This document shows positions 2,138 through 23,714 of a stretch of 25,606 nucleotides of DNA, piece by piece (the stretch's first letter is position 1; each line of letters begins with the position of its first letter). The stretch is from Patescibacteria group bacterium (GTDB lineage: Bacteria > Patescibacteriota > Patescibacteriia > UBA11705 > JABHMO01), in contig JBBTXH010000082.1 in assembly GCA_038062385.1 (NCBI GenBank), forward strand, positions 3,749 to 29,354, written 5' to 3'. The position numbers and the translations under genes were made by a program. The notes beneath the pieces are model-generated. The model had not been told where the DNA came from, made no database searches, and worked only from the letters and a program-made list of their open reading frames with translations.

Positions 2138-2241
2138 TTACGAATTACGAATTTGTACGAATCTACGGATAACTACGAAAACTAAACTACTTACTGAATT
2201 AGTAGACATTCGTAGATTAGTAGCCAATTCGTAATTCGTAA
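2138..2241. repeat. 104-nt inverted-repeat element built of degenerate TACGAAT units
   Basis: 16-bp perfect terminal IR TTACGAATTACGAATT (2138-2153) / AATTCGTAATTCGTAA (2226-2241). Confidence 0.8.
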
Positions 2242-2249
2242 TCTAATAT

Positions 2250-3020
2250 ATGCTAGAAAGAGAATTACAAAATTTCGGTCTGAGCGAAAAAGAAGCCAAG
2301 GTTTACTTGGCGGCTTTGGAATTGGGTACGGCTACGATACAGGAATTATCAAAGAAGTCGGGCGTGAATCGCGCCACGACGTATATCCAGGTTGAGTTGC
2401 TCATTCAACGCGGACTGATTAGCAGTACTGATCGCGCCAAAAAGAGTTTGTTTATCGCCGAGAAACCACAGCGTCTGGTTGATATTTTGAACGATAAAAA
2501 GAGTAAGGTTGAGGAACTTGAAGATAAATTTACGAAGCTGATGCCGGATTTTGAAGCGATTTATAATGTTCACTCCGATCGCCCGCGCGTGCGCTTTTTC
2601 GCTGGCGAAGCTGGGCTTAATTCTTGGCGCAATGAAGTTTACAAAGACAAGCCGAAGCTGCTTTATATGATTCTTCCTGGAAAATTGAATACCATTACAG
2701 ACTTAAAGGATGACCCAGTGCTTGTTAAATTGGCCAATTCCGTGGAGACAATCAAAGTAATGTATCTTGCGGAAAAAAACTTGCCTTCGAATATATTCGT
2801 CTCATACAGAAATATTTTAACCAGGTATTTTTATATGAAAGATTTTGAATTGGATATTACTTTGTTTAATAATAAGTTGCATTTGAATAAACCGATAGGT
2901 TTTGACGCCAGCATGGGGGTAATGGTAGAAGACAAGATGTTCTGTAAAAGTTTTGTAGCCATTATTGAAACTCTTTGGCAACTTGGTCAGCCGCTTGGCG
3001 AAATTCCTAATATGAAATGA
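2250..3020 (+). CDS. TrmB-family HTH transcriptional regulator (paralog of 1382..2134)
   Basis: GLSEKEAKVYLAALELG..TIQELS....VNRATTY; PRVRFFAGEAG linker. Confidence 0.88.
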   Translation: MLERELQNFGLSEKEAKVYLAALELGTATIQELSKKSGVNRATTYIQVELLIQRGLISSTDRAKKSLFIAEKPQRLVDILNDKKSKVEELEDKFTKLMPDFEAIYNVHSDRPRVRFFAGEAGLNSWRNEVYKDKPKLLYMILPGKLNTITDLKDDPVLVKLANSVETIKVMYLAEKNLPSNIFVSYRNILTRYFYMKDFELDITLFNNKLHLNKPIGFDASMGVMVEDKMFCKSFVAIIETLWQLGQPLGEIPNMK

Positions 3021-3035
3021 TATAAGGATTAGTAA

Positions 3036-3058
3036 GATTCCGGATTGTGATCCGGAAT
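3036..3058. repeat. Short palindromic repeat
   Basis: ATTCCGGAT tgtg ATCCGGAAT followed by GAC. Confidence 0.5.
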
Positions 3059-3076
3059 GACAGTTGGAAATATAAA

Positions 3077-3102
3077 ACCGGACAGAATAGTGTGTCCGGT
3101 TA
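3077..3102. terminator. Hairpin between convergent genes, probable bidirectional terminator
   Basis: AACCGGAC agaatagtgt GTCCGGTT with A-run before and T-rich tail after. Confidence 0.6.
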
Positions 3103-3111
3103 TTTATTGAA

Positions 3112-3354
3112 CTAAAACCGCATATCGTAGGAGCTGCTTGTAGAGCTTACTTCGTCGCGGTCGTAATGATGTTCATCGCCATAAGTTGAAAAGCCGCTTC
3201 CGCCACCGCACATGCCCAAGCACGAAATATGTCGAGAACCTTGTTTAGCAGCCGTTCGAGATGTCCGAACCGGTTGTCGTGGGGTTTTCTTTGTAGTGTT
3301 GCTCCTTTTGTTTGTTTGAACTGCCACTCCCGTTTCTCCTGTTGCCGGGACCAT
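3112..3354 (-). CDS. Hypothetical 80-aa low-complexity protein
   Basis: ORF lies between a near-consensus minus-strand promoter (3394-3422) and a hairpin; weak RBS, no homolog recognised. Confidence 0.4.
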   Translation of the reverse strand: MVPATGETGVAVQTNKRSNTTKKTPRQPVRTSRTAAKQGSRHISCLGMCGGGSGFSTYGDEHHYDRDEVSSTSSSYDMRF

Positions 3355-3393
3355 CCCGTCTAAACCAATAAAAATTTATTGGAGTAACTGGAT

Positions 3394-3422
3394 AGTATAG
3401 CAGTATTATAAAAGTTTGTCAA
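3394..3422 (-). promoter_or_regulatory. Sigma70-type promoter
   Basis: TTGACA-17 nt-TATACT with extended -10 TG on the minus strand. Confidence 0.7.
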
Positions 3423-3539
3423 GCTTATTGATTGATAATCAATTTAAATGTCTGGTACAATTGATAATGTTTTTGTATATTAGTTCTTGCTAAAATTAAA
3501 CAAAAAAGGTTATATTCTCAACTTGAATGTCAGTGGCTA

Positions 3540-3568
3540 TTGACAAATTAAAAAATATGCGATATAAT
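3540..3568 (+). promoter_or_regulatory. Sigma70-type promoter
   Basis: Perfect TTGACA (3540-3545)-17 nt-TATAAT (3563-3568). Confidence 0.8.
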
Positions 3569-3627
3569 GCTTTGATGTTACCTTTGGCTGACGTGCTTGT
3601 CTAGCTAAACTTAACAAGGAGGAAACA

Positions 3628-3789
3628 ATGAATAAATTGTATCGGAAAGTGGTTCGGTTTAATAGAGAGAAGTTCTTTAGAGCGGTCAGTCGGGCGGTGA
3701 ACGGCGCGGTGCCGGCGAGCAGGCCGCATTCCTCAAAAAAAGGAAAGCGCGGTTACAGCCGCGTTCAAGGAAAGAAGGTGGAGGATTAA
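3628..3789 (+). CDS. 53-aa highly basic small protein (absent from ORF track)
   Basis: AAGGAGG SD, ATG 3628, MNKLYRKVVRFNREKFFRAVSRAVNGAVPASRPHSSKKGKRGYSRVQGKKVED, TAA 3787-3789; own promoter and terminator. Confidence 0.7.
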   Translation: MNKLYRKVVRFNREKFFRAVSRAVNGAVPASRPHSSKKGKRGYSRVQGKKVED

Positions 3790-3805
3790 AAATGAAGAGA
3801 AACAA

Positions 3806-3836
3806 AAAAGCGTTCTTAATCAAAGAGAACGCTTTT
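3806..3836. terminator. Bidirectional intrinsic terminator
   Basis: AAAAGCGTTCT taatcaaag AGAACGCTTTT between convergent genes. Confidence 0.75.
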
Positions 3837-3846
3837 AAATTTATGA

Positions 3847-5829
3847 TTATGGTTGAACCGTGCCGTTTCCCGTGGCAAAAGAATCAAGTTCAAGCGCAGT
3901 GGTTAAAATGCTTTTTGTTCTGGTGATCAGCTCATCGGTGGAGACATCTCTCGCCACGAGCGTGCAGTTCCCAGTCAACTTGAGTAGTGTTCCGATCTCG
4001 TTTGTTTGAGGAGTAAAGGCAAGGCTGAAATTAGCATGAGCTTCTTTGACTAAAGCTGGTAAACGATTTATTTTCCAGGCAATGGTGCGGCTGGCCTCAT
4101 CAAAAGTAATTTCACCGGTCGAAACATTTTTTTCGTTTATCCAATTTATATTTTGAGGTAAGGCAGTACTTACAGTTAGATCTTTTATCTCGTGAAGATC
4201 ATTGGAAAGATCCCAAAAGATTTTTAGTTTTGTGGTTTGACCAGCGTGTGGTGGCCAAGGACCAGTACCGACCGGTGTACCATCGCTGTAATAATATAAT
4301 GCTTTTGCCCCAATGTTAACGTTAGAATTCAGCACCAGAATAACCGGACTGCTTTTAACCGGTGGAATGGCGCTATTGTTTTTTTCGTCAAGAATAATTT
4401 GAGAACTTATTTCAATGGTTGATTGATTTAATGAATTGAGATCAATGTTCGTCAATTCAGCCAGTGATTTGAGAGGTAGAATGATATTAACGGAAACATC
4501 TTTGCCGGGAGCCAGAGATTTTAATTCACTGATTTGTTTCGCTTCCCAAGTGATTTCTTTGGTTTCGTTTAATTTTTGTATTTTGCCGAAATGATCGTCT
4601 TTGATTTTGTTCCAGTTGATAATTTCAGAAGATAAACTGGTAATCAATATTTTTATTTTCAAATTTTGATAAGCAGACACGCCATTGTTTTTCGCGATCG
4701 CGGAAATGGTTAATTCGTCTCCCAATCCAACGGCTTTATTTTCCGTTGAACCGTTGACGATGAGATAAGTATTGAGCGCCTGATCAATGATTTTGATCGT
4801 GAATTTTGTTTCACTAACCGCGAGGTATTGGCCGTCTTTTCCCGGCAGAAGTATTTGTACGGTGAAAGGCTGTTCGCGTTCCGCCTCATTCTGGAAGGAT
4901 AGATCAGCGGGGAAGGAGCCTTCGATGGAGATGTTTTTGCTTTCTTCTTTCCCCTTCAGTTCAGAAATTATCCATTGGTTGCTGTCTTCATAGGCATTGG
5001 GAGAAGCGTTTAAAAAGGCAAATTTTTCCGGATAGAGATATTGAAGTTTAATGTTTTCAAACAGGCGGTCGCTTTTGTTTTTCAACTTGGTTTGCAGAGT
5101 GATTTTTTGGCCGGGAGTGAGGTTAGCCGGGAAAACATTAGCCAAGTCGATTTGCGGCGCTTCGAGTGCGATGGAAAGAGATGTCTCTTTGGTAAAGTCT
5201 GAACGGAAATTGTCAGGTTGAAAGGTAATGGCCGCGATTAATTTCTGTTCACTCTCTAAAGTATCAACGATTTTGCCGGTAATCGTGATCTTGCCTTTTT
5301 GTCCAGGGGCTAAAGTTCCCAATTCCCATTTGTGATTGGAATTTTGTGGCTCTGCTTTCATCATGATAAAGCCTTTGGGATATTGGACGGTGATGCGACT
5401 GGTCAGAAAGTCAGCGTCGCCAAGGTTTTGATAGGTGATAATGTAGGCAAATTCTTCGCCAACTTGAATTTTATCAGGAGCTTCAATGGCGATACTAACA
5501 GCTTCTGTTGCCGGCCGCACGTTGCCGCTGAAATAAAAAAAACCGGCTAACGCTGATCCGGCCAATAGCACCAGACCGATGATTGAGAAAATGACAATCT
5601 TTTTTTTGCGATGTTGTCGCTTTTCGTCGATCAATTCCTTCAGATAATATTCGTCTTTCAATTTATTGATCTGGCTTTCGTGTTTAGCATCCACGGCTTC
5701 AATTGAAACGCCATTCAATTCTTGTTCTTCTTCAGCATAAAGGTCGATCAGATCCTGAATCGGATCTTCTTTTTTGTATTTTATTTTTTTTCTTTTAAAT
5801 TTAAAAAAATGGTTTTTTTTATTATCCAT
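3847..5829 (-). CDS. Membrane-anchored extracellular protein with repeated beta-sandwich (DUF11-like) domains
   Basis: Single N-terminal TM (IVIFSIIGLVLLAGSALAGFFYF); repeats such as GEEFAYIITYQNLG and WELGTLAPGQKGKITITG. Confidence 0.7.
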   Translation of the reverse strand: MDNKKNHFFKFKRKKIKYKKEDPIQDLIDLYAEEEQELNGVSIEAVDAKHESQINKLKDEYYLKELIDEKRQHRKKKIVIFSIIGLVLLAGSALAGFFYFSGNVRPATEAVSIAIEAPDKIQVGEEFAYIITYQNLGDADFLTSRITVQYPKGFIMMKAEPQNSNHKWELGTLAPGQKGKITITGKIVDTLESEQKLIAAITFQPDNFRSDFTKETSLSIALEAPQIDLANVFPANLTPGQKITLQTKLKNKSDRLFENIKLQYLYPEKFAFLNASPNAYEDSNQWIISELKGKEESKNISIEGSFPADLSFQNEAEREQPFTVQILLPGKDGQYLAVSETKFTIKIIDQALNTYLIVNGSTENKAVGLGDELTISAIAKNNGVSAYQNLKIKILITSLSSEIINWNKIKDDHFGKIQKLNETKEITWEAKQISELKSLAPGKDVSVNIILPLKSLAELTNIDLNSLNQSTIEISSQIILDEKNNSAIPPVKSSPVILVLNSNVNIGAKALYYYSDGTPVGTGPWPPHAGQTTKLKIFWDLSNDLHEIKDLTVSTALPQNINWINEKNVSTGEITFDEASRTIAWKINRLPALVKEAHANFSLAFTPQTNEIGTLLKLTGNCTLVARDVSTDELITRTKSILTTALELDSFATGNGTVQP

Positions 5830-5852
5830 AACAAAGGCGGTGATTAGAGTTT

Positions 5853-8399
5853 CTATTTGAGAGAGAGCGCGAAGAGTTGGTCAGTATAAAAAGAAGAAGC
5901 GGTTTCGATGGGACTGGCGACATCCGTTGATTTTATCGGATAGAGCCAATTCGCTGATACGCCTTCCGGCAGATTGATCTTGATGTTGAAATTTGTTTGT
6001 TGGCTGCCGGACTGTTTTTGCAGAAACAAGGAATAAAAAGAAGTTTCAGGCGCGTCGGCGAATGACAGTAAGGTTTTTTTGCCCGGCAGATTCAACTGAA
6101 AAGGAAGTTTGTATTTAAGAACAACTTTTGATTCTTCCCCTGCGTCAGTTTGAATCCAGTTGGCGAAAACTGTTTTGTTGAATTCATTGTTTATTTTTGT
6201 CTGGTTGGTCACGTCAGTTTTGATTTTTCCTTGAATATTGTCCAGAAGTTCGTCTTTTGACCAAGCGCTATTCGGCTTTTCAAAAAGTTCAGCCGGCATC
6301 TCACTGAAACCTTCGGCGGAAATAAGTTGACTGGCTAAGGGAGTATAAATTCTGGTGTAAACCAAGTTGGACCCTTGGCCTGATTGATCGGTCGGCTGAC
6401 CGTTATGTTTGCGGGTAATGGTCAGGGTATTGAAGACGTCCCCATCATCATCAATGGTTGATTCCAGTTTGATATTTTGTTCAATATAGTAATCGGTTTT
6501 ATTGCCGCCGATATTTGTATTGATAACCGAAAGATAATCTTTTGAACTGTCGAGCAGCTCTCCCGACCAACCGTAGGCGGAAAACTTTTCTTGAATAACG
6601 TCATCGGAGAAATACAGTTGAATGTCTTTTTGATCCAAACCGTTTTTAAAAACTTGAGAAATTTTCAGAAGTTGATCGCCCTTGCTGGCAAATATTTTTT
6701 TCAAAAGTTCAGGCGCGATGGCTGATAATATTTTCTTCGGTTGATTGTCTTTGATTGTTTTGTTTTCGTGATCAATGGTTTTTTGCAGTTCAGTAATAAA
6801 ACCGGCGGCCTCAAAGGTGCGGCCATCAGCCAAACTAATGTTGCCGATGATTTTCATCAGTTCCGGGATGAGCGTGGCATTGATGGCGATAACGCCGTCC
6901 ACGCTTGGGCCGCCCGAGTTTTCATAAAACCATTTTATTTTTTGGGCGGAGGTTGGGAAATTTGGAAACCAATTGGCGTCTTGCATTTCCCAGAGCGGAT
7001 TGATGAGATGCAGCGGCTCGGGTGAAATTACTTTTTTGAGCAAGGATCCTTGCAGATCGTAAGTGCCGCCTCCCGGTATTTCCATGTTTTTTATTTCACC
7101 GCGATCAATGTCCACCAAAGCATAACTGCCCATAAAGCCGCCGGTTGGTCTGATCTCATTATTGTTTTGGAAAATGAAAAGATAGCGCTTTTTGTAATCA
7201 GAACCGAGAACCTGCTGGATCGTTTGCGACAATTCATTCAAATCATCCAAGTCGCTGTGGAGGGTCAGTAGATATTTTTTAATACGGACAAAATCATTTA
7301 TTTTTTCAGTCGGAATAGCTTCCGGCCTTATTTTAGAGAGAGAGTTGTTGAGCTGATTCAGTTTTGGCGTGAGGGTGAAAAGTTTTGCTTCGATTTGCGC
7401 CAAGCGGTCGGTCAATTTCGTCTTGTTATTTTTTTTGAAATCGCTCATGAGTTCGCTGACTGATCCGCCGATTTGCGCGGCCGCGCGTCCAGCCTCCAGT
7501 AAGTATTCGGCATCAGCTAAGTTGGCTGAATCGGTTGGAAGTATTTTTAAAATTGTTTTTAGCAATGGATCAATACTGTTCAGTTCAGCGGCGGCTTGAG
7601 ACAGGGCGGAACTAGCGAGATTAAACTTCGCCTCTGCGTCAGTGGCGTTGTCTTGCGACAATTCTTGCCCGGCAATTTTCATGTCAGCATAAGCGGTCGT
7701 GGCATAATTTACTATTTGGTCTTTTGATTTTTGAATTTTTTGATAATGACCGAAAACCTTGATCGGAGCAATGATCAACAAGGCAACAACAATGAATGAA
7801 ACCACTGAACGATGCCAATTGATTGGCAGATTGAAATGATAAAATATTGGTACGGGAGTGAGTTGCTTGAACAGTTCATCGCTGTCCGGAAATTCGTCCG
7901 GCGCGGCTGGTTCGATCGGCGCCGCGCTTTCTTTGATGATGATATTCTTTGTGGCAGGCACGGACAGAACAGTGTTCTGTCCGTACGTATTTTGAGATGA
8001 TTTTTTGAAAAAAGAATGAATGCGCGCTTTGTGCTCTTCAATCGCCTTCTTTTTTTTAACAAGACCGGTTAAATCAAGCACAAAAGGCGAGTGATGATGG
8101 TGCTCGGAGCTGTTTTTTACAATAATTTCAGTATGGTGATGAACATCTTTTTTTGCCAAAGTTTCTCCAGCTGGCATCATTTTGGCCAGTTCTCGCATAA
8201 TCGTTGATTCCAGTTCTTTTTCCGGTCTGCTTACCGAGTGATGCTCCATGATGGAGTCAATCTCATGTTGAAGAAGCCCGATGGTTATCGGGGATTGATC
8301 AGTTGATTCGGTCACATGTTTTTTTTCAACTTTAACATGCGCGCTTGTCGGAGCGATTCTTTTGGAAAATTTTTTTGTTTTATGATTTTTCGGTTTCAT
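5853..8399 (-). CDS. DUF4012-domain membrane protein
   Basis: TM near aa 200; YLFIFQNNNEIRPTGGFMGSY, DANWFPNFP, VDGVIAIN, NTNIGGNKTD motifs typical of this family. Confidence 0.85.
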   Translation of the reverse strand: MKPKNHKTKKFSKRIAPTSAHVKVEKKHVTESTDQSPITIGLLQHEIDSIMEHHSVSRPEKELESTIMRELAKMMPAGETLAKKDVHHHTEIIVKNSSEHHHHSPFVLDLTGLVKKKKAIEEHKARIHSFFKKSSQNTYGQNTVLSVPATKNIIIKESAAPIEPAAPDEFPDSDELFKQLTPVPIFYHFNLPINWHRSVVSFIVVALLIIAPIKVFGHYQKIQKSKDQIVNYATTAYADMKIAGQELSQDNATDAEAKFNLASSALSQAAAELNSIDPLLKTILKILPTDSANLADAEYLLEAGRAAAQIGGSVSELMSDFKKNNKTKLTDRLAQIEAKLFTLTPKLNQLNNSLSKIRPEAIPTEKINDFVRIKKYLLTLHSDLDDLNELSQTIQQVLGSDYKKRYLFIFQNNNEIRPTGGFMGSYALVDIDRGEIKNMEIPGGGTYDLQGSLLKKVISPEPLHLINPLWEMQDANWFPNFPTSAQKIKWFYENSGGPSVDGVIAINATLIPELMKIIGNISLADGRTFEAAGFITELQKTIDHENKTIKDNQPKKILSAIAPELLKKIFASKGDQLLKISQVFKNGLDQKDIQLYFSDDVIQEKFSAYGWSGELLDSSKDYLSVINTNIGGNKTDYYIEQNIKLESTIDDDGDVFNTLTITRKHNGQPTDQSGQGSNLVYTRIYTPLASQLISAEGFSEMPAELFEKPNSAWSKDELLDNIQGKIKTDVTNQTKINNEFNKTVFANWIQTDAGEESKVVLKYKLPFQLNLPGKKTLLSFADAPETSFYSLFLQKQSGSQQTNFNIKINLPEGVSANWLYPIKSTDVASPIETASSFYTDQLFALSLK

Positions 8400-8477
8400 T
8401 GTCTATGGTTACGGATGTACGGATAAACGTACAGATAGTACAGATTATTAGACGCAGATGAGGGATATTGGGGGATA

Positions 8478-8520
8478 CCCATAAACCAGTTGCGTATTCT
8501 CGCAACGGTTTAGGGCAAGC
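8478..8520 (-). repeat. CTTG-footed hairpin element
   Basis: CCCATAAACC a GTTGCG tattct CGCAAC GGTTTAGGG CAAGC; the arm plus CAAG matches copies at 15204-15270, 17073-17113 and 23600-23636. Confidence 0.6.
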
Positions 8521-8566
8521 GAGGGAAACGAGGGTATTGATTTTTTGTTTTATTGTACAGCTCCGT

Positions 8567-8606
8567 TGCTTTAGTGCTTCTATGTTTCTATGCTTAAATG
8601 CTTTGA
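8567..8606. repeat. 8-nt-period tandem array overlapping GT4 stop codon
   Basis: tgctttag/tgcttcta/tgtttcta/tgcttaaa/tgctttga. Confidence 0.75.
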
Positions 8607-9709
8607 TACACCGCTAAGGTTTGCTCCGCGCATTTTTTCCAACTGAATCGTTTTACGTTTTCCAATCCTTTATTTCTGAGTTCTTGTTTTAAAGTTTCGT
8701 TTGATAAAACAGCATAAATCTGTTCAGACATTTCATTGCTGCTCCACGGGTTGAAAAACAGGGCAGAGTCATTCAGAATTTCAGGCATTGATGAGGTATT
8801 TGTGCTGACTACCGAGCAACCGCATTTTTGCGCTTCAATGGCGATAAGTCCAAAGCCTTCGATGAAAGAGGGGAGGACAAAGAGGTCAGCGGCATTATAA
8901 AGTGGGGGTAGTTCTTGATCGCTGATATAACCGGTGGTGATAATATCGTTTTTGAATGGCGAAGCGTTAATCCTTTCGCGAACTTTTGTATCGTGCAAGT
9001 CTTCTCGTCCACCAAGAACAAGTTGATGCGGTAAAGCGTAATTTTTTTTCAGCAAATTAAATGCTTCCACCAATCCGGTGAGATTTTTGTGATCTCGCCA
9101 AACGCCAACGTAAAATATGAACGGTTGGCAAATTCCGAACTTGTTTTTTACTTTATTTATTATAGCACAATTTTCAATTATTTTAAAACGTTCGTCCACA
9201 CCTTCGTGAGTGACAATGATTTTGTCCGGATTAACCTTGAAATACCGGATAATGCCTTGTTTCGTGCTCTCTGAAACAGCGATAATTTTGGTTGCTTTTT
9301 TAACGGTTGAACGGAAAACTGCGCGATAACCGAGGCGTCTGATCAAGGAATTCATTTTATGTCCGGGAAATGTCAGCGGCGTGAGGTCATGAATGGTGCA
9401 GATTGATTTTTTGGGAAATAGAATCGGCGAGTTGAAATGAGGGTAGTGAATCAGGTCGAATTTTTCTCGCAGGAATTGAATCGGCAGTAAAAATTGTTCT
9501 TGATAGGTGTACCAACGCGGAGTTACTTTGACTTTTTTAACGCGACTGTTCGGTTCAATAAATTTGGAGAAAGCCGGTTCGCGCAAAAACAAAACATATT
9601 CGTTTTCAGAGTCTATTTGAAACAAATTGTCAGTCAAGTTTTTTATGTAAGTGCCGATGCCGGTGCATTCTTCATTACCGTACATTCTGGCGTCGATGGC
9701 GATTTTCAT
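8594..9709 (-). CDS. Glycosyltransferase family 4 (GT-B)
   Basis: MKIAIDAR start, TIHDL, FYVG...HKNL, EGFGLIAIEAQKCG signature. Confidence 0.93.
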   Translation of the reverse strand: MKIAIDARMYGNEECTGIGTYIKNLTDNLFQIDSENEYVLFLREPAFSKFIEPNSRVKKVKVTPRWYTYQEQFLLPIQFLREKFDLIHYPHFNSPILFPKKSICTIHDLTPLTFPGHKMNSLIRRLGYRAVFRSTVKKATKIIAVSESTKQGIIRYFKVNPDKIIVTHEGVDERFKIIENCAIINKVKNKFGICQPFIFYVGVWRDHKNLTGLVEAFNLLKKNYALPHQLVLGGREDLHDTKVRERINASPFKNDIITTGYISDQELPPLYNAADLFVLPSFIEGFGLIAIEAQKCGCSVVSTNTSSMPEILNDSALFFNPWSSNEMSEQIYAVLSNETLKQELRNKGLENVKRFSWKKCAEQTLAVYQSI

Positions 9710-9740
9710 AGAAGCAAAAAAGCAAAGAAGCAATAAAACA
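9709..9740. repeat. 8-nt-period tandem array at GT4 start, inverted relative to 8567-8606
   Basis: tagaagca/aaaaagca/aagaagca/ataaaaca. Confidence 0.7.
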
Positions 9741-9743
9741 AAA

Positions 9744-9983: not shown

Positions 9984-9984
9984 G

Positions 9985-15866: not shown

Positions 15867-17012
15867 TTAGCGAAGGCGGATATTTTTAAGTAAGGTCGCC
15901 ACTTCTTGCGCCGTCTTGTACCAATTAAATTCTTTCGCTTTTTTTAAACCCAACGAACGCCAATATTCAGCGTTTTCTTTTTTTGTCAGAATGTCCATTG
16001 CCTGAACAAGATCGTTTATATTGCACGGATCAATGAGCAGGGCCGCTTCTTGGCAAGTTTCCGAGAGAGAAGAATTGCTTGAAGTGATCACCGGGCAACC
16101 GCAGGCCATGGCTTCGAGAGGAGGGAAACCAAATCCTTCATAGAACGAAGGATAAACAAACATTGAAGCCAAATTATAAAAATATCGTTTTTCCGAATCT
16201 TTGATAAAACTAACAAATTTTATGTTTGGAGTCAGTTTGGCTGATTTTAATATTTTTTTGAATTTCCAGCCGAGTTTGCCGGCGATAACCAATGAATATT
16301 CGGGATGCTCTTGGTTGAAAAGTTCAAAAGCTGAAATTAAACTAGCCAAATTTTTTCGCGGTTCAATGGTGCCGAGGAAAAGAACGAATTTTTCCGGCAA
16401 ATTATATTTTTGTTTTATTTTTTTCAAGCGAACGTCATCAGTCGGAAGAATTTTATAATTCGCTGATAAACCGGAGTAGATGGTGTGAATTTTTGACGGC
16501 TCGATTTGATAATGGTTGATCAAGTCCTGTTTGGTGTTTTTGGAGATGGCAATAATTTGTTTGGCGTTTTTGAATAATTGCGCGGGGTTGACGAAATGGT
16601 GCCAGAATTTTCGTTTGAACGACAGAAATTCTGGAAAAAATTCATAACTTAAATCATGGGCGGTTAAAACATACGGGCAATTTGTTCGCAGAGAACAAAT
16701 GTTCGGGAAAAAGAAAAAATCAATTGGCGGAGTGTGATATATTTTTTGAATCCAAAGATCGAGTTTGGGGTATTTCAAAAACTTAATGGACAAATTAAGC
16801 AGTTTATTCGGCCAGTGAAAAACGCAATAATGAATGTTGGTTTTCGGAAATTTTGGAATGTATTTGGCCACGTCTTGGCGGGAATTGTAAAACAAAAAAT
16901 ATTCGTTGGTGTTATCAATTTCGAACAAATGTTTCAGTAAATTAAAAGTGTATTCGCCGACGCCGGTCAGTTCTTTTTCCATGAGACAGCGGATATCAAT
17001 GGCTATGTTCAT
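15867..17012 (-). CDS. Glycosyltransferase family 4
   Basis: MNIAIDIR start, TAHDL, FLGTIEPRKNL, YEGFGFPPLEAMACG. Confidence 0.94.
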   Translation of the reverse strand: MNIAIDIRCLMEKELTGVGEYTFNLLKHLFEIDNTNEYFLFYNSRQDVAKYIPKFPKTNIHYCVFHWPNKLLNLSIKFLKYPKLDLWIQKIYHTPPIDFFFFPNICSLRTNCPYVLTAHDLSYEFFPEFLSFKRKFWHHFVNPAQLFKNAKQIIAISKNTKQDLINHYQIEPSKIHTIYSGLSANYKILPTDDVRLKKIKQKYNLPEKFVLFLGTIEPRKNLASLISAFELFNQEHPEYSLVIAGKLGWKFKKILKSAKLTPNIKFVSFIKDSEKRYFYNLASMFVYPSFYEGFGFPPLEAMACGCPVITSSNSSLSETCQEAALLIDPCNINDLVQAMDILTKKENAEYWRSLGLKKAKEFNWYKTAQEVATLLKNIRLR

Positions 17013-17070
17013 AGAAGCATTTAAATAAAGAAGCACTAAAGCAACGAAGCAAGACAAGCGAGGTAAGCAA
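17012..17070. repeat. 8-nt-period AAGCA array at GT4 start
   Basis: tagaagca/tttaaata/aagaagca/ctaaagca/acgaagca, then two 9-nt units. Confidence 0.7.
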
Positions 17071-17072
17071 GA

Positions 17073-17138
17073 CCCTGCACCACAAATTGTTACACATTTG
17101 GGTTCAGGGCAAGCGAGCCCCGCAAAACTGTGCGGGGC
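17073..17138. repeat. CTTG-footed hairpin plus GCCCCGCA hairpin
   Basis: CCCTGCACC...GGTTCAGGGCAAG; GCCCCGCAAAACTGTGCGGGGC identical to 23636-23657. Confidence 0.75.
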
Positions 17139-17260
17139 GAGCGAGACGAGTGAAGTGAAAAAAAACTAAATTAAATTTTCATCCATACCCTCGTTTCCTT
17201 TTTATTCCCAGTCACCCCTCGCCAGTCTCAAACTAATCAGTAGAATCACGTAATGATCAG

Positions 17261-17299
17261 CTTGCCCTGTACTTAATATGAAATAATTATAGTACAGGG
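17261..17299 (+). repeat. CTTG-footed hairpin
   Basis: CTTG CCCTGTACT (17265-17273) ... AGTACAGGG (17291-17299). Confidence 0.6.
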
Positions 17300-17320
17300 T
17301 AGATCTGTATTACCTACAGC

Positions 17321-18418
17321 CTACCGCCCTACGTCCTGCATCTTGTTCACGATAAACTCTTTTATCTTCAGCTTGAATATTTCCGTGTCAAATTTTTCAG
17401 CATGGCTGCGGATTTCCTGCGGATTATAATCGAAAGGTTTAAACCGTAAAACCTTGTCAGCCAGATCCTCCCAGGTCTGTTCTTCGAACAAGACGCCGGT
17501 TTTGCCATCAACGACCGTTTCGAGCGCGCCGCCGGCGCGATAGGCAATGACCGGCCGGCCGCTGGCCATGGCTTCGACGCAAGTGATGCCGAAATCTTCC
17601 AACTGCGGGTTGATAAAAGCGCGGCATTCGCTAAATAACTTAGCTTTTTTTTCTTCGGAGATTTTTCCGAGAAATTCGATGTTATTTTTCGCTTCTTTTT
17701 TCAGTTTTTTGAATTGTGGACCATCACCGAATATCTTCAGAGGCAAATTCAACCGATTGAAGGCGGTAATCAAAAGATCAAAGCGTTTATAACCAACGAA
17801 TCTGCCGCCTGCGAGAAAATAGTTTCCAAGTTTATTGGAGATATAAAAATTTTTCGTTTCCACCGGCGGGTAAATGATTTCGCTGTCGCGGTGATAATAT
17901 TTTTTAATGCGTTTTTGCACTTCTTTTGAGTTGGCGATGAAGTGATCAACGCGCTCGGCCGCGATTTTGTCCCATTGCCGCAAGTTGGTCAGAACAAATG
18001 GCAGAACTGCTTTGATTAGAAAATTATGTTTCAATTCTTTCAGATAGTTATGGCTGTCGGTCCAGAGGAATCTAGCCGGCGTATGGCAGTAGCAGATATG
18101 AGTGGAGCCAGGACCCGGGATGATACCCTTTGAAAAAATAGAACACGAAGAAATAATCAATTTGTATTTGCCGAGATTGTGGTGCTCGGTGGCGCTGGGC
18201 ATGAGCGCGAGAGGCCACTCAAACCAATGGCTGGCGCCGGGGATTTTTTCAAGAAAAGAGGTTTTTATTTCATATTGATTGAATTCAGGATCAGCCTTTT
18301 TTTTGTTATGAAGTAACGTAAAAAGAGGACTGCCCGGGAAAATTTGCAGTAGAGTTTTGGCAACGCGTTCAGCGCCGCCGTCTTGTACGAGGTGGTCATG
18401 GACGATCGCAACGTTCAT
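17321..18418 (-). CDS. Glycosyltransferase family 4 (mannosyltransferase-like)
   Basis: VAIVHDHL...GGAERV, CYCHTPARFLW, EDFGITCVEAMASGRPVIA. Confidence 0.94.
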   Translation of the reverse strand: MNVAIVHDHLVQDGGAERVAKTLLQIFPGSPLFTLLHNKKKADPEFNQYEIKTSFLEKIPGASHWFEWPLALMPSATEHHNLGKYKLIISSCSIFSKGIIPGPGSTHICYCHTPARFLWTDSHNYLKELKHNFLIKAVLPFVLTNLRQWDKIAAERVDHFIANSKEVQKRIKKYYHRDSEIIYPPVETKNFYISNKLGNYFLAGGRFVGYKRFDLLITAFNRLNLPLKIFGDGPQFKKLKKEAKNNIEFLGKISEEKKAKLFSECRAFINPQLEDFGITCVEAMASGRPVIAYRAGGALETVVDGKTGVLFEEQTWEDLADKVLRFKPFDYNPQEIRSHAEKFDTEIFKLKIKEFIVNKMQDVGR

Positions 18419-18497
18419 ATGGTCATTAGGAGTATAAGTTTGCCCCCCTATATTACCAAAAGAAAAGCAGAATGGAAAGTGTATAGATTAAATCAAA

Positions 18498-18523
18498 ACA
18501 CATGGCTAAAACCATGTGTCTCT
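18498..18523. repeat. REP-like hairpin / possible terminator
   Basis: ACACATGG ctaaaa CCATGTGT followed by CTCT. Confidence 0.5.
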
Positions 18524-18544
18524 GAAAAAAATTAAACGGGGGAA

Positions 18545-19969
18545 TTAAACCTTGGATTTCCTGGTTAGAATGATCCACGGCGTTTTCAGGATAATCCAGA
18601 TGTCCAGCTTGAGCGACCAGTTTTCTATATAATAAGCGTCAAGTTTTACCTCTTCGTCAAAGTCTAGATCAGAGCGGCCGCTGATTTGCGCCAAGCCGGT
18701 TATTCCGGGTTTAATATCAAGGACGCGTTTGTGGTGTTTTTCATATTTTTCCACTTCGCGCGGTTGATGCGGTCTCGGACCCACTAAACTCATGTTGCCA
18801 ATCCAGACATTGAAAAGTTGAGGCAGTTCATCGAGGGAAGTTTTTTCGAGAAATCGGCCTATAGTCGTGCGGCGCGGATCATTCAAAATTTTATAAACCG
18901 GTCCGGTTCGTTCAGATTTTTCTTTGATTAATTTTTGTTCAAATTCCAAAGCGCTTTTTTGGTTGCCAAATTGTTTGCCGGTGCAATACTTGCTGTACAT
19001 TGATCTGAATTTGTAGACATTGAAGGTGCCTTTTCGATTTACGCGTTCGTTTTTGTAAATAGCCGGTCCTGAATCCTCCAGTTTAATGAGAATGGCGAGC
19101 ACGAGCAAGAGCGGGCTCAAAACAATAATGAAAATCGAACTGAAAATAAGATCAGTCAGCCGTTTAATGATTTTCAGCCAGCCGTCCAGCTTGGTTTTTT
19201 TTATTTCAATGAGTGGCACGCCGGCGATCATGTGCACTTCCACGTTCGTGGTGCGCGCTTCGAATTGTCCGGCCGCGTATTTGAAAATAATATTGTGCTC
19301 GGAGCAGAAGTCAGCGAGCGAGATGGAAACTTGGCGCGACAGAGTGGAGTCTGCTTGAATGATTTCATCAATACCATGCTTGCGGTGCAGTTCCAGTAAT
19401 TTTTGTTTATCGTTTTCATCAAATTCATTGATGCGGCCGATGATTTTGTAGCCGAGACCCGGCTCATTATTAAAAGTCTTTACGATTTCGACAGCGTCAT
19501 CATTATTGCCGATGATGACAATATTATGATTTCCCCAGCCGGCTTTAAAACAGAGATTTTGGATTTTTCTAATGAGCGTTCTGATTATTATTATCATGAA
19601 AATACTGAGAATCCAGGCGGTGAGCAGAATGAAGCGCGAAGAAAACATTTCTCTCACGAAAAACATGTAAATAATGACGGCCGTCATGCCGGTGGAGCAG
19701 GCCAGAATAATTTTCGCCAATTCGTCCGTGATTTTTCTTCGTTTGAATGAATAAAGTCCGGCCCAAGCGAAAAAGATGAGCCAGCTGGCGCTGACAATGA
19801 TCGTAACTAGAAAATATTTATCAAATGTTAAATCAAAAATGACCGGTCGAATTTCTTGGATCGATTGTTCATAACGAATGAAATACGCGATGATGCCCGC
19901 CGCGATCAAAGTCAGATAATCCAGCGGAATTTTCAAAAAAGTAAAAAAAAGTTCTGCGTTTTTTTTCAT
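18545..19969 (-). CDS. Polyprenyl-phosphate hexose-1-phosphate transferase (WcaJ/WbaP-like sugar transferase)
   Basis: Four N-terminal TMs plus one later TM; KFRSM, LDELPQLFNV, GPRP, KPGITGLAQISGRSDL, DAYYIENWS. Confidence 0.93.
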   Translation of the reverse strand: MKKNAELFFTFLKIPLDYLTLIAAGIIAYFIRYEQSIQEIRPVIFDLTFDKYFLVTIIVSASWLIFFAWAGLYSFKRRKITDELAKIILACSTGMTAVIIYMFFVREMFSSRFILLTAWILSIFMIIIIRTLIRKIQNLCFKAGWGNHNIVIIGNNDDAVEIVKTFNNEPGLGYKIIGRINEFDENDKQKLLELHRKHGIDEIIQADSTLSRQVSISLADFCSEHNIIFKYAAGQFEARTTNVEVHMIAGVPLIEIKKTKLDGWLKIIKRLTDLIFSSIFIIVLSPLLLVLAILIKLEDSGPAIYKNERVNRKGTFNVYKFRSMYSKYCTGKQFGNQKSALEFEQKLIKEKSERTGPVYKILNDPRRTTIGRFLEKTSLDELPQLFNVWIGNMSLVGPRPHQPREVEKYEKHHKRVLDIKPGITGLAQISGRSDLDFDEEVKLDAYYIENWSLKLDIWIILKTPWIILTRKSKV

Positions 19970-20079
19970 ATTTCAGAAAATAATTGATGAATGAATATAT
20001 TATAACAGTTATTATGCGGAATGTCGATTTTTAAAAAATAAAAAAACACCAATTTTTACAATTGCTGTTTTTTAATGTC

Positions 20080-20401
20080 CCAAACAAGCGAATAAGCCGG
20101 ATTCTGTTTTAACTGTCATCTATCTTGTCCCGCAATCGCTGGAGAGATCATGCGGGCTACCAAATTTGCCCTTGCACCCAAGTAAGGGTTTAGCCGTTTC
20201 ACTCCCACCTTCGCATAAAGCTACGGTGGGACTAATCCCGAAGGATCCCAAGAACCTCGCGGTCTTGGCGTCTCTGCTCGCACCTCTATCTCACGACCGA
20301 CAGGGATTACCTGCTACTCGCGTCAATTTAATGGCTAGGTGTCCGGACTTTCCTCTCCCCGTAGCTTTACGCGAAGGGGAGCGACAGAACTGCTTGTTTG
20401 G
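20080..20401 (-). ncRNA. rnpB: RNase P RNA (type A-like)
   Basis: P1 CCAAACAAGC/GCTTGTTTGG; conserved GAGGAAAGTCCGGAC and AAACAGAATCCGGCTTA P4 halves. Confidence 0.95.
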
Positions 20402-20410
20402 AACTTTTGT

Positions 20411-20439
20411 ATTGTAGCAAAAAAAGTTAATCCTGTCAA
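20411..20439 (-). promoter_or_regulatory. rnpB promoter
   Basis: TTGACA-17-TACAAT with extended TG, just upstream of P1. Confidence 0.8.
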
Positions 20440-20462
20440 TTACACGTGTAATTTAAGCCGAA

Positions 20463-20491
20463 TTGACAATAATAAAATTTTTTGATAAAGT
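20463..20491 (+). promoter_or_regulatory. Promoter for ORFan cluster, divergent from rnpB
   Basis: TTGACA-17-TAAAGT. Confidence 0.55.
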
Positions 20492-20515
20492 AATTCTCTG
20501 AGAGGAGGTGAGATC

Positions 20516-20800
20516 ATGGAAGAGCTCACTGTGCGCAATTTCAAAAATTATGCTTTGCGGATGAGCAGAGGGTTCGGTCACGGTTATGATTTTTTTAGAA
20601 GCTTGTCGAACGAACATGATCTGTTTTGGAAGAGAATCAATGCTCTCCGAGATATGCGTTTGCGTGAGCAGGGGTTATTTGTATTAGACGAGAACGATGG
20701 CGATGAAGAGATCTTTGACAATTACCATCCAGTGAAATTAACTCTTGGTGAATGGGAAGCGTTCAAAGAAAACTTGCGCAAACTTGTTTTGGAATATTAG
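20516..20800 (+). CDS. Hypothetical 94-aa protein
   Basis: AGGAGGTG SD before ATG. Confidence 0.75.
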   Translation: MEELTVRNFKNYALRMSRGFGHGYDFFRSLSNEHDLFWKRINALRDMRLREQGLFVLDENDGDEEIFDNYHPVKLTLGEWEAFKENLRKLVLEY

Positions 20801-20812
20801 AAAGGAGGAAAA

Positions 20813-20971
20813 ATGGCTGATGAAAGAATTGAAGATAGTCAGGAATACAAGATTGCGGAAAACGGCAAAAGAATGAAAAAAGTTAAGCAGGGAGATGGCA
20901 GCTGGGCATGGGTTGATACGGTGCTGGAAACAGCGGCAGATGTATTAGAAGCTGTGATTGATTTCGATTAA
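20813..20971 (+). CDS. 52-aa acidic small protein (absent from ORF track)
   Basis: AAGGAGG SD; MADERIEDSQEYKIAENGKRMKKVKQGDGSWAWVDTVLETAADVLEAVIDFD. Confidence 0.7.
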   Translation: MADERIEDSQEYKIAENGKRMKKVKQGDGSWAWVDTVLETAADVLEAVIDFD

Positions 20972-21033
20972 ACAAAAACCGTTGAGTTCAAAATTCAGCG
21001 GACATGGCTACGGCGAACCAAGGAGGTGAGAAA

Positions 21034-21573
21034 ATGAAAACAAAAGTAGTCAATGTGCCCGGGGCAGAACAGCCGATAGAAATTTGGCCGAATAATAGAA
21101 CCGGAATAAAGATAAAAAGTTGGATGTTATACTGGACGACCTGGGCGCTCGGGTCAAATGGTTCGTTTGGCGTTAGAAAGATAACTGAGTGGAAAGAACT
21201 TTTAAAAGAAGGTTTTTTCTTTTTTGGTAAAGTGTGTAACGTTCGGAGCTCAGCCAAAAACAAAGGTTGCGATTATGTTGTTCATCACGAGGTCTTTCTC
21301 AATTATAACGATGATCTGAGTTTTTATGGAATAATAGATGATATTGAAGTGGCGCGCGGTAGTTGGGTGGGTAATAACTCCGAGCAAATGATGATTATTG
21401 TTACAGTGCATTTCACACAGCTGAACAATGATTGCGGGATATTGCGGCGATTTATGGTTGTAGATAAACATGGCGATCCGGACGGAGCGATGACTACTTC
21501 ATGGTGGGAACTTCGAGGAGAGCGCTATCCGAAAGGTATCTACTTTGAAGCTGCTAGGTTTGAACTGGATTGA
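21034..21573 (+). CDS. Hypothetical 179-aa protein
   Basis: AAGGAGGTG SD before ATG 21034 within ORF 21004..21573. Confidence 0.75.
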   Translation: MKTKVVNVPGAEQPIEIWPNNRTGIKIKSWMLYWTTWALGSNGSFGVRKITEWKELLKEGFFFFGKVCNVRSSAKNKGCDYVVHHEVFLNYNDDLSFYGIIDDIEVARGSWVGNNSEQMMIIVTVHFTQLNNDCGILRRFMVVDKHGDPDGAMTTSWWELRGERYPKGIYFEAARFELD

Positions 21574-21593
21574 CGAGAAGGAAAGGAAAAATA

Positions 21594-21932
21594 ATGGGCG
21601 CTAAAGAAGCATTTTGGGATGTTGAAGCGATGTTGCTATTAGCCGGCTTGCCGAAAGAACAGGAAGTCATTGGCAAGGATATTGTTTTTGAAGGCCAGGC
21701 GCTTGATCCGATAATTGTTCCGGGTAGAATGAATCTCGGTAAAGTTAAATCAGTTGACGAACGTGGTGTGGTAATCTGTGGAAAGTGTTATTATTATTTG
21801 ATTTTGATGACCGATCGCGGAATGAAATATACTTATTGCGGATTTGGCGATTTTTGGCATTTTGAACTGGCTGGCAAGATCTATGTCGGCAAAATCACAG
21901 CACTAAACGGAAAGGACGTGGAAAATGGCTGA
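21594..21932 (+). CDS. Hypothetical protein (paralog of next gene)
   Basis: AAGGA-type SD before ATG 21594; GLPKEQEVIGKDIVFEG motif. Confidence 0.7.
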   Translation: MGAKEAFWDVEAMLLLAGLPKEQEVIGKDIVFEGQALDPIIVPGRMNLGKVKSVDERGVVICGKCYYYLILMTDRGMKYTYCGFGDFWHFELAGKIYVGKITALNGKDVENG

Positions 21933-22221
21933 AGAGGTTAACGCGTTGGATAAAGCATTGAGAGCGCGTGGATTGCCCGCAGAGATTATTGGGAAGCAAC
22001 TTATTTTTTCAGGCCACTTCGCTCCAAAAACTGCTGATCATCTTAACATTGAGGTGCGTGCACGTTGCAGTTCTGCGATATTCGGAGACGATCAATTCGT
22101 TTTATACGGAGAGAATTGTCAATTTGTTTGGGATATCAGGGGCTGTGTTTGGAAGTTTGTCAGCCACCCGTTTGGTTACGCGGAAATTCGAGCATGGGGA
22201 CGAATCACGGTAGTAGATTAA
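21925..22221 (+). CDS. Hypothetical 98-aa protein
   Basis: Overlaps upstream stop by 8 nt; GLPAEIIGKQLIFSG motif. Confidence 0.7.
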   Translation: MAEEVNALDKALRARGLPAEIIGKQLIFSGHFAPKTADHLNIEVRARCSSAIFGDDQFVLYGENCQFVWDIRGCVWKFVSHPFGYAEIRAWGRITVVD

Positions 22222-22228
22222 AATAATT

Positions 22229-22260
22229 CCGGTCAAGCGCAACGCGCTTGGCCGGTTTTC
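22229..22260 (+). terminator. Intrinsic terminator
   Basis: CCGGTCAAGCGC aac GCGCTTGGCCGG TTTT. Confidence 0.8.
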
Positions 22261-22277
22261 GTTTAAGGGGTATTGTT

Positions 22278-22388
22278 TTGAACTATGATTATTTTGATTG
22301 AATGAATACTATGATTATGCGCCTCGAGAGTACAAACAACCTTATGTGTCATAGTCCATCAAATAATCATTTTTAAATCATAGTTCAA
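22278..22388. repeat. 111-nt inverted-repeat element overlapping trpS stop
   Basis: 13-bp perfect terminal IR TTGAACTATGATT / AATCATAGTTCAA with internal CTATGA units. Confidence 0.7.
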
Positions 22389-23365
22389 GATAACCCGATT
22401 ATTTTTTTCACCTGTTTCATTTTCTTAGTTGCCAACACTTGCGCCTTCTGTGTTCCGACGTCTAAGATTTTTTCAACCTCATCGTCAGAGAGCGCATTGA
22501 ATTTGTCTTGAATTGGAACCACAAACTCAATCAGTTTTTCCGCCAGATCTTTTTTGAAGTCGCCATAGCCGCGTCCGCTGAACTTTTTTTCAATTTCTTT
22601 GGCCTCTGAACCAGTTACCAGATGATAAAGCGTCATCAAATTCGCCAAAGCCGGCTTGTCCGGCGTGAATTTTATTTCACTGCCTGAATCAGTGACCGCC
22701 TTTTGAATTTTTTTACGAATTAATTCCGGCGCATCGGTTAAAGCAATGTAATTGTATTCAGAAGAAGATGATTTACTCATTTTTTTCGTCGGATCGTCTA
22801 ATCCTTTCAAACGAGCGGAAATTTTATTGATTTTAACTTCAGGAATAGTGAATACATCGCCGTAAACAGCATTGAATTTTTTCGCGATTGTTCTTGTTAA
22901 TTCAACATGTTGAACTTGGTCTTCACCGACCGGCACAATGTTTGTGTCATAAAGAAAAATATCCGCGGCCATTAAACATGGATAAGTGAAAAGACCGGAA
23001 TTGATATTTTCTTTATGTTGTTTTGATTTATCTTTGAACTGCGTCATGCGCTCAAGTTCAGAGATCGGCGTGGTACAATTCAAAATCCAACCCAGTTCAG
23101 CGTGTTCCTTCACGTCAGATTGGCGGAAGATAATATTTTTCTTCGGATCGAGCCCAGAAGCCAAATAAATTTTCGCGAGATTAATGATGTTGGCGCGAAG
23201 TTGTTCTGGCTTTTGATAAACAGTGAGCGCGTGCAAATCAACAATTGAAAAAATTGACTCGTATTCATTTTGTAGCGTCAGCCAGTTAGCTAGCGCGCCG
23301 AAATAATTGCCGAGATGAATGATGCCGGTTGGCTGCATGGCGCTGAAGAGGCGGTTTTTTAACAT
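22385..23365 (-). CDS. trpS: Tryptophanyl-tRNA synthetase
   Basis: FSAMQPTG.IHLGNY, YPCLMAADI, VPVGEDQVQHVEL, KMSKS. Confidence 0.98.
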   Translation of the reverse strand: MLKNRLFSAMQPTGIIHLGNYFGALANWLTLQNEYESIFSIVDLHALTVYQKPEQLRANIINLAKIYLASGLDPKKNIIFRQSDVKEHAELGWILNCTTPISELERMTQFKDKSKQHKENINSGLFTYPCLMAADIFLYDTNIVPVGEDQVQHVELTRTIAKKFNAVYGDVFTIPEVKINKISARLKGLDDPTKKMSKSSSSEYNYIALTDAPELIRKKIQKAVTDSGSEIKFTPDKPALANLMTLYHLVTGSEAKEIEKKFSGRGYGDFKKDLAEKLIEFVVPIQDKFNALSDDEVEKILDVGTQKAQVLATKKMKQVKKIIGLS

Positions 23366-23383
23366 AGGATTGGTTTAATAGAG

Positions 23384-23428
23384 GATTAGTAAGATGGGGA
23401 GGATTAGAAGGATTAGTAAGATTGGCGA
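23384..23428. repeat. 9-nt-period array in trpS leader
   Basis: gattagtaa/gatggggag/gattagaag/gattagtaa/gattggcga. Confidence 0.75.
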
Positions 23429-23528
23429 TAGAAATAAAGGAAATAAAAGGGGGTAGAGATAGCTGGTGGCGGACTGTTTTCACTGGTGTGATTATATCAA
23501 ATTTGTAAAAAAACGACAACGACATTTA

Positions 23529-23561
23529 AAACAAAACGAGGCAGTTACGCCTCGTTTTGTT
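23529..23561. terminator. Hairpin, probable rnj terminator
   Basis: AACAAAACGAGGC agttac GCCTCGTTTTGTT, 13 bp. Confidence 0.7.
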
Positions 23562-23599
23562 ATTGGTACACTTTTGTTGGTCTAGACTATCCTAAACGT

Positions 23600-23662
23600 C
23601 CCTGAACCACTCACCCCTGTTCGGGTTCATGGCAAGCCCCGCAAAACTGTGCGGGGCTTGCC
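23600..23662. repeat. CTTG-footed hairpin plus 13-bp GGCAAGCCCCGCA hairpin
   Basis: CCCTGAACCACTCAC...GTTCGGGTTCATGGCAAG; GGCAAGCCCCGCA aaactg TGCGGGGCTTGCC. Confidence 0.75.
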
Positions 23663-23714
23663 TAACAATCCTCCTTATCCTCCTAATCTTTCTAATCCTC
23701 CTAATCCTAACCTT
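23661..23714. repeat. 9-nt-period array after rnj stop, inverted relative to 23384-23428
   Basis: cctaacaat/cctccttat/cctcctaat/ctttctaat/cctcctaat/cctaacctt. Confidence 0.8.

Follow-up and report, generated by a model that had tools for sequence, protein, structure and literature searches.

We have analysed a 25,606-nucleotide (nt) stretch of DNA, hereafter the window, from a Patescibacteria genome (assembly GCA_038062385.1; the window is part of contig C82, JBBTXH010000082.1), in which short tandem arrays flank many genes. Throughout this genome the arrays follow one orientation rule, with one strand after stop codons and its complement before start codons, and arrays of the same type bracket the genes of the TIGR02436/PF05635 four-helix-bundle family (S23p/Avd-like). 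Our data suggest, with the balance somewhat in favour, that the arrays are the arms of small, palindromic, selfish elements resembling the intervening sequences (IVSs) of 23S rRNA genes, hence the complementary strands after stops and before starts. The polarity rule itself is not new, having been published for the heptamer repeats of Xanthomonas and Nostoc; the link between polar arrays and a four-helix-bundle gene family is the new contribution here.

Array polarity across the genome

The host genome (1.08 Mb in 152 contigs, 41% GC, rated 100% complete) was scanned with Tandem Repeats Finder (TRF), which returned 1277 rows; array periods of 9 were more frequent than those of 8, and these than those of 7. 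Strict arrays were defined by a period of 6-11, at least 2.8 copies and a GC content of at least 20%. We found 333 of them genome-wide, 274 (82%) being intergenic although intergenic DNA makes up 24% of the genome. The 257 kb of intergenic DNA held 264 arrays, whereas Markov-simulated sequence (orders 1, 3 and 5) held 1-7.

Put in one phrase, reading away from a gene, onward from its stop or back from its start, gives the purine-rich strand; each spacer then runs from purine arrays through its centre to pyrimidine arrays, whichever strand is read. Among arrays within 40 nt of a gene end, the sense strand held less purine than the antisense strand in leaders (64:10) and more in trailers (71:15). 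The original prediction, made from the letters of the window, had proposed one polarity for trailers and the complement for leaders, and this was borne out genome-wide at about 80-87% rather than 50:50. Tabulated by family, 163 cases conformed to the rule and 40 did not (odds ratio 17.7). Six major families (GGATTAG/GGAGGAT, GTAGGG, TTGGGAT, TACAAAT, AAGCA and GACAAGC) kept the rule on both sides of genes, the exception being the TACACGA family, which has the same sense on both sides. Many of the apparent exceptions were mis-assignments or arms of the four-helix-bundle cassettes described below. Since the copies within one family are not independent, nominal p-values are too small, and at the level of families the count is about six or seven against one.

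Chance, strand composition or faulty gene calling might be held responsible, and the home-made gene calls together with the non-independence of family copies would speak for this. We reject it as extremely improbable on the strength of several tests. The arrays far outnumber those of the simulations, and a test made without gene calls found 22 inverted pairs that were purine-first and 3 that were pyrimidine-first. Leaders and trailers lacking arrays showed no such purine bias, and thus the composition bias that the original prediction had named as a ground for refutation fails; the purine skew of whole spacers was weak, the signal being carried by the arrays only. Because polarity flips across every gene, strand composition and replication strand are excluded. 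Finally, only about 5 purine-rich arrays were hidden inside predicted 5' ends of genes.

The purine-polarity rule is established for this genome, not for its relatives. In a polarity test blind to array family, made with crude gene calls, genome G020 gave a null result (22 vs 23 pairs) and genome G017 a weak one (17:6). The commonest arrays of these two genomes, which belong to the same order, are of CATGGA/TCATG-type units; in G020 such arrays seemingly do not change sense between leaders and trailers, a departure from the host's rule, in a comparison of small numbers that again rests on crude gene calls.

Four-helix-bundle genes between inverted arrays

A hidden Markov model (HMM) search of the whole genome with PF05635 gave 10 matches, 9 of them genes over the cut-off. 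All 9 PF05635/TIGR02436 genes were bracketed by inverted arrays, with a purine arm upstream and the complementary pyrimidine arm downstream. The original prediction had stated that similar inverted arrays flank small mobile four-helix-bundle genes elsewhere and had asked which protein family co-occurs with the arrays; here both point to the same S23p/Avd-like family, and the arrangement is also found in relatives. The cassettes have seven distinct arm types: five genes each own one, and the paralogue pairs on contigs C101/C8 and C50/C141 share theirs. The cassette genes were co-directional with the neighbouring host genes (8/8); all 9 lie between protein-coding or tRNA genes, none at the 23S rRNA sites (helix 25 or helix 45). 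The cassette protein matched TIGR02436 at 111.7 bits and PDB entry 2GSC (Xanthomonas XCC0516) at E 1e-19, and was a weaker homologue of the Avd protein of diversity-generating retroelements (DGRs; NF033474, 37.9 bits).

The orientation of the cassettes is opposite to that of ordinary genes, among which purine-rich leaders number 10/74. This places the four-helix-bundle genes inside palindromes and all other genes outside them. At a liberal threshold, 226 of the 261 other intergenic arrays share 6-mers with the arms of one of the nine cassettes. Relatives carry 0-18 copies of the gene each, and all 20 cassettes sampled from 17 relatives had flanking inverted matches above those of shuffled sequences; among the 12 that scored at least 30, the purine arm was upstream in 9 and on the opposite side in 1. 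GC-rich metagenome loci with a distant homologue had a G-rich array upstream and its complement downstream in 5 of 8 cases.

We propose that a complete element would consist of a purine array of 7-9-nt units, a TIGR02436/PF05635 gene and the complementary pyrimidine array, set between two co-directional host genes, and that gene-less hairpins, like MITEs (miniature transposable elements with inverted repeats), and solo arms would be far commoner than complete elements. Such a palindrome would read purine arm then pyrimidine arm on either strand, so that every host gene would be followed by the purine strand at its stop and preceded by the complementary strand at its start, the orientation rule being inherited element architecture and not a property of single genes. 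Arrays would change through gain and loss of whole units. Arms lying within one transcript would form a long stem beside stop and start, a structure of the sort cleaved by RNase III in those 23S rRNA IVSs that carry the same gene family, and an RNase III gene is present in the host genome. The gene-less and solo arrays may derive from, or spread with, the cassettes, RNase III may process the array stems, and the four-helix-bundle protein may have a role in array spread; the function and the mobility of the elements are likewise inferred.

The arrays of the TACAAAT family are a MITE-like hairpin element and not independent products of slippage. A 25-mer composite occurs in 21 copies in the host and in 0 copies in 25 other genomes of the order. 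A second arm, GCTACAAATTACAAATCACTACAAAT, has 44 copies, with 16 inverted pairs 55-101 nt apart, all purine-first. Complete pairs have arms of 26-34 nt, whose outer end, GCTAC, is 0-25 nt away from the start or stop of a gene; no target-site duplication was evident at the GCTAC ends. Further dispersed repeat families were AGGGTTACTTTTTGACGCCCTG (15 loci), GACGAAGGAGTGGTTTACGGCC (13) and GTACTATAATTATTTCATATTA (10), one family being present at about 17265-17295 of the window.

A more specific version, which we consider rather unlikely, is that every array family serves one Avd-like paralogue of its own as cognate substrate, and that this protein, by itself or together with a reverse transcriptase (RT) or host enzymes, would spread the arms or maintain them, in the way that RAYT transposases serve REPINs, the paired forms of repetitive extragenic palindromes (REPs). 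Arms are shared by the closest protein pairs (72%, 67%, 63%, 60% and 59% identity).

Two contigs carry genes of related interest. Contig C98 (412-954) encodes a 180-aa RAYT-like Y1 transposase with an HUH motif and YIHxNP, flanked by its own REP hairpins TTCCCAAGC..GCTTGGGAA, which are confined to this 1.1-kb contig; the contig is possibly contamination or an unassembled repeat. A REPIN/RAYT system as source of the arrays was rejected, as these REPs occur on that contig only and do not match the arrays. Contig C104 (460-1836) holds a divergent pair, an Avd-like gene (NF033474, 72 bits) and a 296-aa RT, which is probably a DGR.

Several results weigh against palindromic elements as the source of the arrays. 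The HMM search, with its 10 matches in the whole genome, showed no decayed four-helix-bundle genes between arms, and in this fragmented assembly no cassette was found for the TACAAAT, TTGGGAT, GACAAGC and TACTGAT families. A search limited to PF01797 and PF00078 identified no transposase, or other mobility enzyme, for the array elements. Across relatives, gene copy number and array density were loosely related, genome G002 having 10 copies and few arrays in the 60 kb sampled, and protein identity was weakly related to arm sharing overall (rho 0.12; Mantel 186/3000, not significant). Most arrays are solo: a complementary partner in the own spacer was found for 30/174, more than by chance (8/174) but a minority. 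In two-armed spacers the arms were likewise complementary more often than expected (12 of 37 cases vs 3.9), and 25 of the 37 hold arms of different families. Hairpin pairing as a general basis of the rule, which the original prediction had raised, is therefore not supported. In the spacer between rnj (RNase J) and trpS a terminator and a conserved promoter separate the arms, so read-through would be needed for them to share one RNA. Finally, the rule still held for solo arrays, at 48:11 in trailers and 41:5 in leaders, and for trailers in tail-to-tail spacers (6:0); either such arrays are relics of palindromes or orientation-dependent selection acts in addition.

Selection of this kind could also be the whole explanation. 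Arrays would then arise or land either way, and an RNA-level filter would remove the harmful orientation. A leader would have to be G-poor, unstructured and without start codons or Shine-Dalgarno (SD)-like runs, because most genes here initiate without an SD, and a trailer would tolerate, or profit from, a purine- and stop-rich strand. The composition of the arrays is consistent with such a filter: in leaders the sense strand was poorer than the antisense strand in ATG (40:4), GG (40:5) and SD-like runs (30:2), in trailers it was richer in stop codons (54:18), and the TACACGA family shows its GTG-free strand on both gene sides. The start context agrees as well. An SD is missing in about 70% of all genes; U stands at -1 in 68% of the non-SD genes, in 85% of the array-led and in 17% of the SD-led genes; and the non-SD genes, such as trpS at its start (window 23362-23366), have a G-poor region at -12..-1. 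The original prediction was right that its leaders show no SD (2/60 of array leaders have one), but this does not set them apart, since about 75% of the other genes lack an SD too. The persistence of polarity in solo arrays also fits a filter. However, purine content separated the orientations better than start or stop content did, the GACAAGC family is stop-free on both strands and yet was found at 6:1 and 0:6, and ATGs do occur in 'family B' leaders. The tail-to-tail trailers are polar with no leader to protect, the four-helix-bundle genes themselves have purine-rich leaders, and non-array untranslated regions (UTRs) farther than about 12 nt from the start were unbiased. As a rival to the palindromic elements we give this reading a real but minor chance. 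It could act alongside them, and the polarity of the solo and tail-to-tail arrays together with the depletion of ATG, GG and SD-like runs in leaders suggests that an RNA-level orientation filter probably acts too.

Arrays of the window and their setting at gene ends

Pfam names two TrmB proteins, DUF4012, three GT4 proteins, TrpS and RNase J in the window, in agreement with the gene names first assigned from the sequence. The nearest relatives of its RNase J are in metagenome-assembled genomes of Candidatus Falkowbacteria (Patescibacteria, or Candidate Phyla Radiation, CPR), and the window DNA is also present in groundwater metagenomes. All the arrays named by the original prediction were located where it had placed them, the DUF4012 leader and the GTAGG trailer proving weak. 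No PF05635 open reading frame (ORF) lies inside the window's own arrays, which are thus of the gene-less type. The features are collected in the table.

Table. Arrays, hairpins and predicted signals in the window (positions in the window; strand as + or -, a dot where none is assigned)
Feature	Positions	Strand	Remark
Purine-type arm, TTACGAA x2.3	2138..2153	+	Begins 3 nt past the TrmB1 stop; closing arm of the stem when the RNA is folded
Inner imperfect arms TACGAAT/CTACGGAT ... ATTCGTAG plus loop, same TrmB hairpin	2156..2222	+	
Complementary arm, AATTCGT x2.4	2226..2242	+	Ends 8 nt short of the TrmB2 ATG at 2250
Degenerate TACGGAT/TACAGAT run	8408..8446	-	ATCCGTA/ATCTGTA as leader of DUF4012 (5853-8399); by eye, below TRF score
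Trailer array of GT4 8594-9709	8560..8593	-	Read along the gene, GAAGCA-type units
Leader array of GT4 8594-9709	9710..9743	-	Read along the gene, TGCTT-type units; directly adjoins the ATG
Leader arrays of GT4 15867-17012	17013..17075	-	Read along the gene, of TGCTT and GTCTTGC types; directly adjoin the ATG
Hairpin CCCCGCAAAACTGTGCGGGG inside GACGAGC-type arrays	17118..17137	.	Six genome copies, one at 23637-23656
Weak GTAGG-type trailer of GT4 17321-18418	17290..17320	-	1-2 units
Leader array of trpS (22385-23365)	23382..23424	-	Read along the gene, CTAATCC units; SD absent
Predicted extended -10 box TGATATAAT of the trpS promoter	23491..23499	-	TGnTATAAT conserved in relatives (orthologous-spacer alignment)
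Predicted intrinsic terminator after rnj	23528..23562	-	GC stem and U run, between the arms
Trailer array of rnj (23716-25527)	23666..23719	-	Read along the gene, AGGATTAG/GGAGGAT units, starting at the stop codon

The two outer TrmB arms form a perfect 16-nt inverted pair, and the RNA of this spacer folds at -40.7 kcal/mol (z -7.0) with a long closing stem beside stop and start. Past the TrmB2 stop by 4 nt, at 3025-3039, stands AGGATTAGTAAGATT, 1.5 units of the GGATTAG family in the orientation that the rule predicts. The rnj-trpS spacer has 43-nt arms that are 77% complementary, at 23382-23424 (GGATTAG on the + strand) and 23666-23708 (CTAATCC on the + strand), so that on the minus strand the AGGATTAG units follow the rnj stop and CTAATCC units precede the trpS start. 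Assuming read-through, this spacer also folds with a long closing stem (z -9.1). For whole spacers across the genome, RNA folding gave similar z for arrays on both sides (-3.4), on one side (-1.8) and on none (-2.6). Copies of the CCCCGCAAAACTGTGCGGGG hairpin usually lie inside GACGAGC-type arrays that run on in the same orientation on either side.

The GT4 gene 8594-9709 appears to be bracketed by its own trailer and leader arrays, and the original prediction had considered pairing between a gene's leader and trailer. We found such matches at chance level genome-wide (2/14 vs 1.1 expected), and this gene therefore probably lies between two neighbouring elements. Its trailer array has a 17-nt exact match at 17034-17050 in the opposite orientation. 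That the same families serve as trailers and, inverted, as leaders of unrelated genes could also point to a network in trans, in which purine 3' trailers would pair with the pyrimidine 5' leaders of other mRNAs of the same family and so control translation or decay, with the host RNase III at hand to act on the duplexes. The chance-level match between a gene's own leader and trailer speaks against it, and we consider it very improbable.

Throughout the genome, some 55 genes have a leader array whose end lies 0-20 nt ahead of the ATG, and trailer arrays begin between -10 and +10 of the stop. Array-led genes often start ATG-TCN, with the array unit extending into the ORF; a serine (TCN) second codon was found in 30% of array-led genes vs 6% of others. 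Leader arrays so close to the start, in place of an SD, might be bound by a protein that recognises one strand of RNA or DNA (S1, a cold-shock protein or four-helix-bundle pentamers) and so define a post-transcriptional regulon. An S1 protein with four S1 domains is present, the seven arm types follow the four-helix-bundle paralogues, and such a regulon has been proposed for the TAACTGA repeats of Beggiatoaceae (PMC4679880). A single binder would, however, face at least seven unrelated unit sequences, and the trailers hold the complement, which a single-strand binder would not recognise. No CsrA was found in the genome (PF02599), and between genera arrays are lost, gained or swapped at the same spacer. 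Together these points make binding sites an improbable explanation.

Such lability was seen in the rnj-trpS spacer. Here and in its orthologues the order is stop, purine arrays, intrinsic terminator, TGnTATAAT promoter, pyrimidine leader and ATG; in the orthologous spacers of related genera, arrays were absent in three and made of other units in two. This suggests that the arrays are labile fillers of 3' and 5' UTRs. A predicted intrinsic terminator was present in only 33 of 124 array-bearing tandem spacers, and neither Rho (PF07497) nor CsrA was found in this genome rated 100% complete. In the spacers with a predicted terminator, purine arrays before it (10:4) and pyrimidine arrays after it (16:5) give modest support to the same order. 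No enrichment of promoter-like sites was seen upstream of leader arrays relative to an antisense control (15 vs 11 of 50), so a leader array is shown to be 5' UTR for trpS alone, through conservation.

The original prediction had offered slippage as a mechanism. Contigs of other samples, which break at arrays and give poor coverage, showed two unit-scale differences in all, one additional 9-nt unit at 17328 and a 41-nt back-step (expansion) in the 23668-23708 array. These unit-sized changes between strains weakly point to slippage as well.

Related repeats and elements

The closest published repeats are the GGGAATC heptamers of Xanthomonas and GGGGAYT heptamers of Nostoc (Rehm et al. 2015, PMC4692102), which have the same polarity, form inverted pairs, are transcribed and are of unknown function; their G-rich strand is coding within 50 bp after stops and non-coding within 50 bp before starts. 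Like them, the host arrays consist of tandem units of about 7 nt, are intergenic and enriched between co-directional genes, and often form convergent inverted pairs. The published repeats vary in length between strains, and the two unit-scale differences noted above may hint at the same for the host arrays. Unlike them, the host arrays combine seven or more unit families, of 7-9-nt period, within one CPR genome of 1 Mb, are mostly not prone to form G-quadruplexes (G4) and are in part dispersed as fixed composite elements. PMC4692102 links the Xanthomonas and Nostoc repeats to no protein family.

The Coxiella 23S IVS is an S23p ORF between 28-bp terminal inverted repeats, which RNase III cleaves; upstream of the ORF stand purine-rich GACAGAT heptamers that vary between strains, and the element is regarded as selfish (Warrier et al. 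2016, PMC4990558). The host cassettes resemble the IVSs of Coxiella and Leptospira in having a PF05635 ORF within inverted repeats that form a long stem, and purine tandem heptamers upstream. They differ in lying in spacers between genes instead of helix 25 or 45 of 23S rRNA, in their 9 diverged copies with seven arm types, and in their many gene-less forms.

MacGregor (2015, PMC4679880) described direct repeats of the unit TAACTGA in cyanobacteria, Bacteroidetes and marine Beggiatoaceae. These too are heptamer arrays that stand a few nt before starts in place of the SD, and the housekeeping genes behind them are unrelated to one another. They consist of one unit only, mostly forward and upstream, and neither a complementary trailer rule nor a cassette gene is described for them. 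With REP/REPIN-RAYT systems and MITEs the host elements share short intergenic palindromes in many copies and an autonomous gene flanked by its own repeat type, whereas their arms are tandem arrays and not a single REP hairpin. PF05635 resembles Avd (PMC10053308); unlike DGR Avd, the 9 cassette genes are not adjacent to an RT, the RT and Avd pair on contig C104 being separate from them. In a literature search of incomplete coverage we found no paper that links TIGR02436/PF05635 genes to intergenic arrays or reports such arrays in CPR bacteria.

Polar short-period repeats at gene boundaries have been known for decades in cyanobacteria, Xanthomonas, Beggiatoaceae and Bacteroidetes and have remained unexplained; a wider class of 5-11-nt 'long SSRs' (simple sequence repeats) was reportedly set out by Mrazek et al. 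in 2007. For the present genome, polarity is linked to a definite element and to one gene family, the S23p/Avd-like four-helix bundle, which makes the question testable. On the practical side, the array elements explain why such genomes break into many contigs on assembly. The finding also bears on operon organisation and on SD-less translation start in CPR bacteria. If true, a partnership between each array family and its cognate paralogue would explain the polar repeats of heptamer or short tandemly repeated repetitive (STRR) type in many phyla, as well as the origin of the 23S rRNA intervening sequences.

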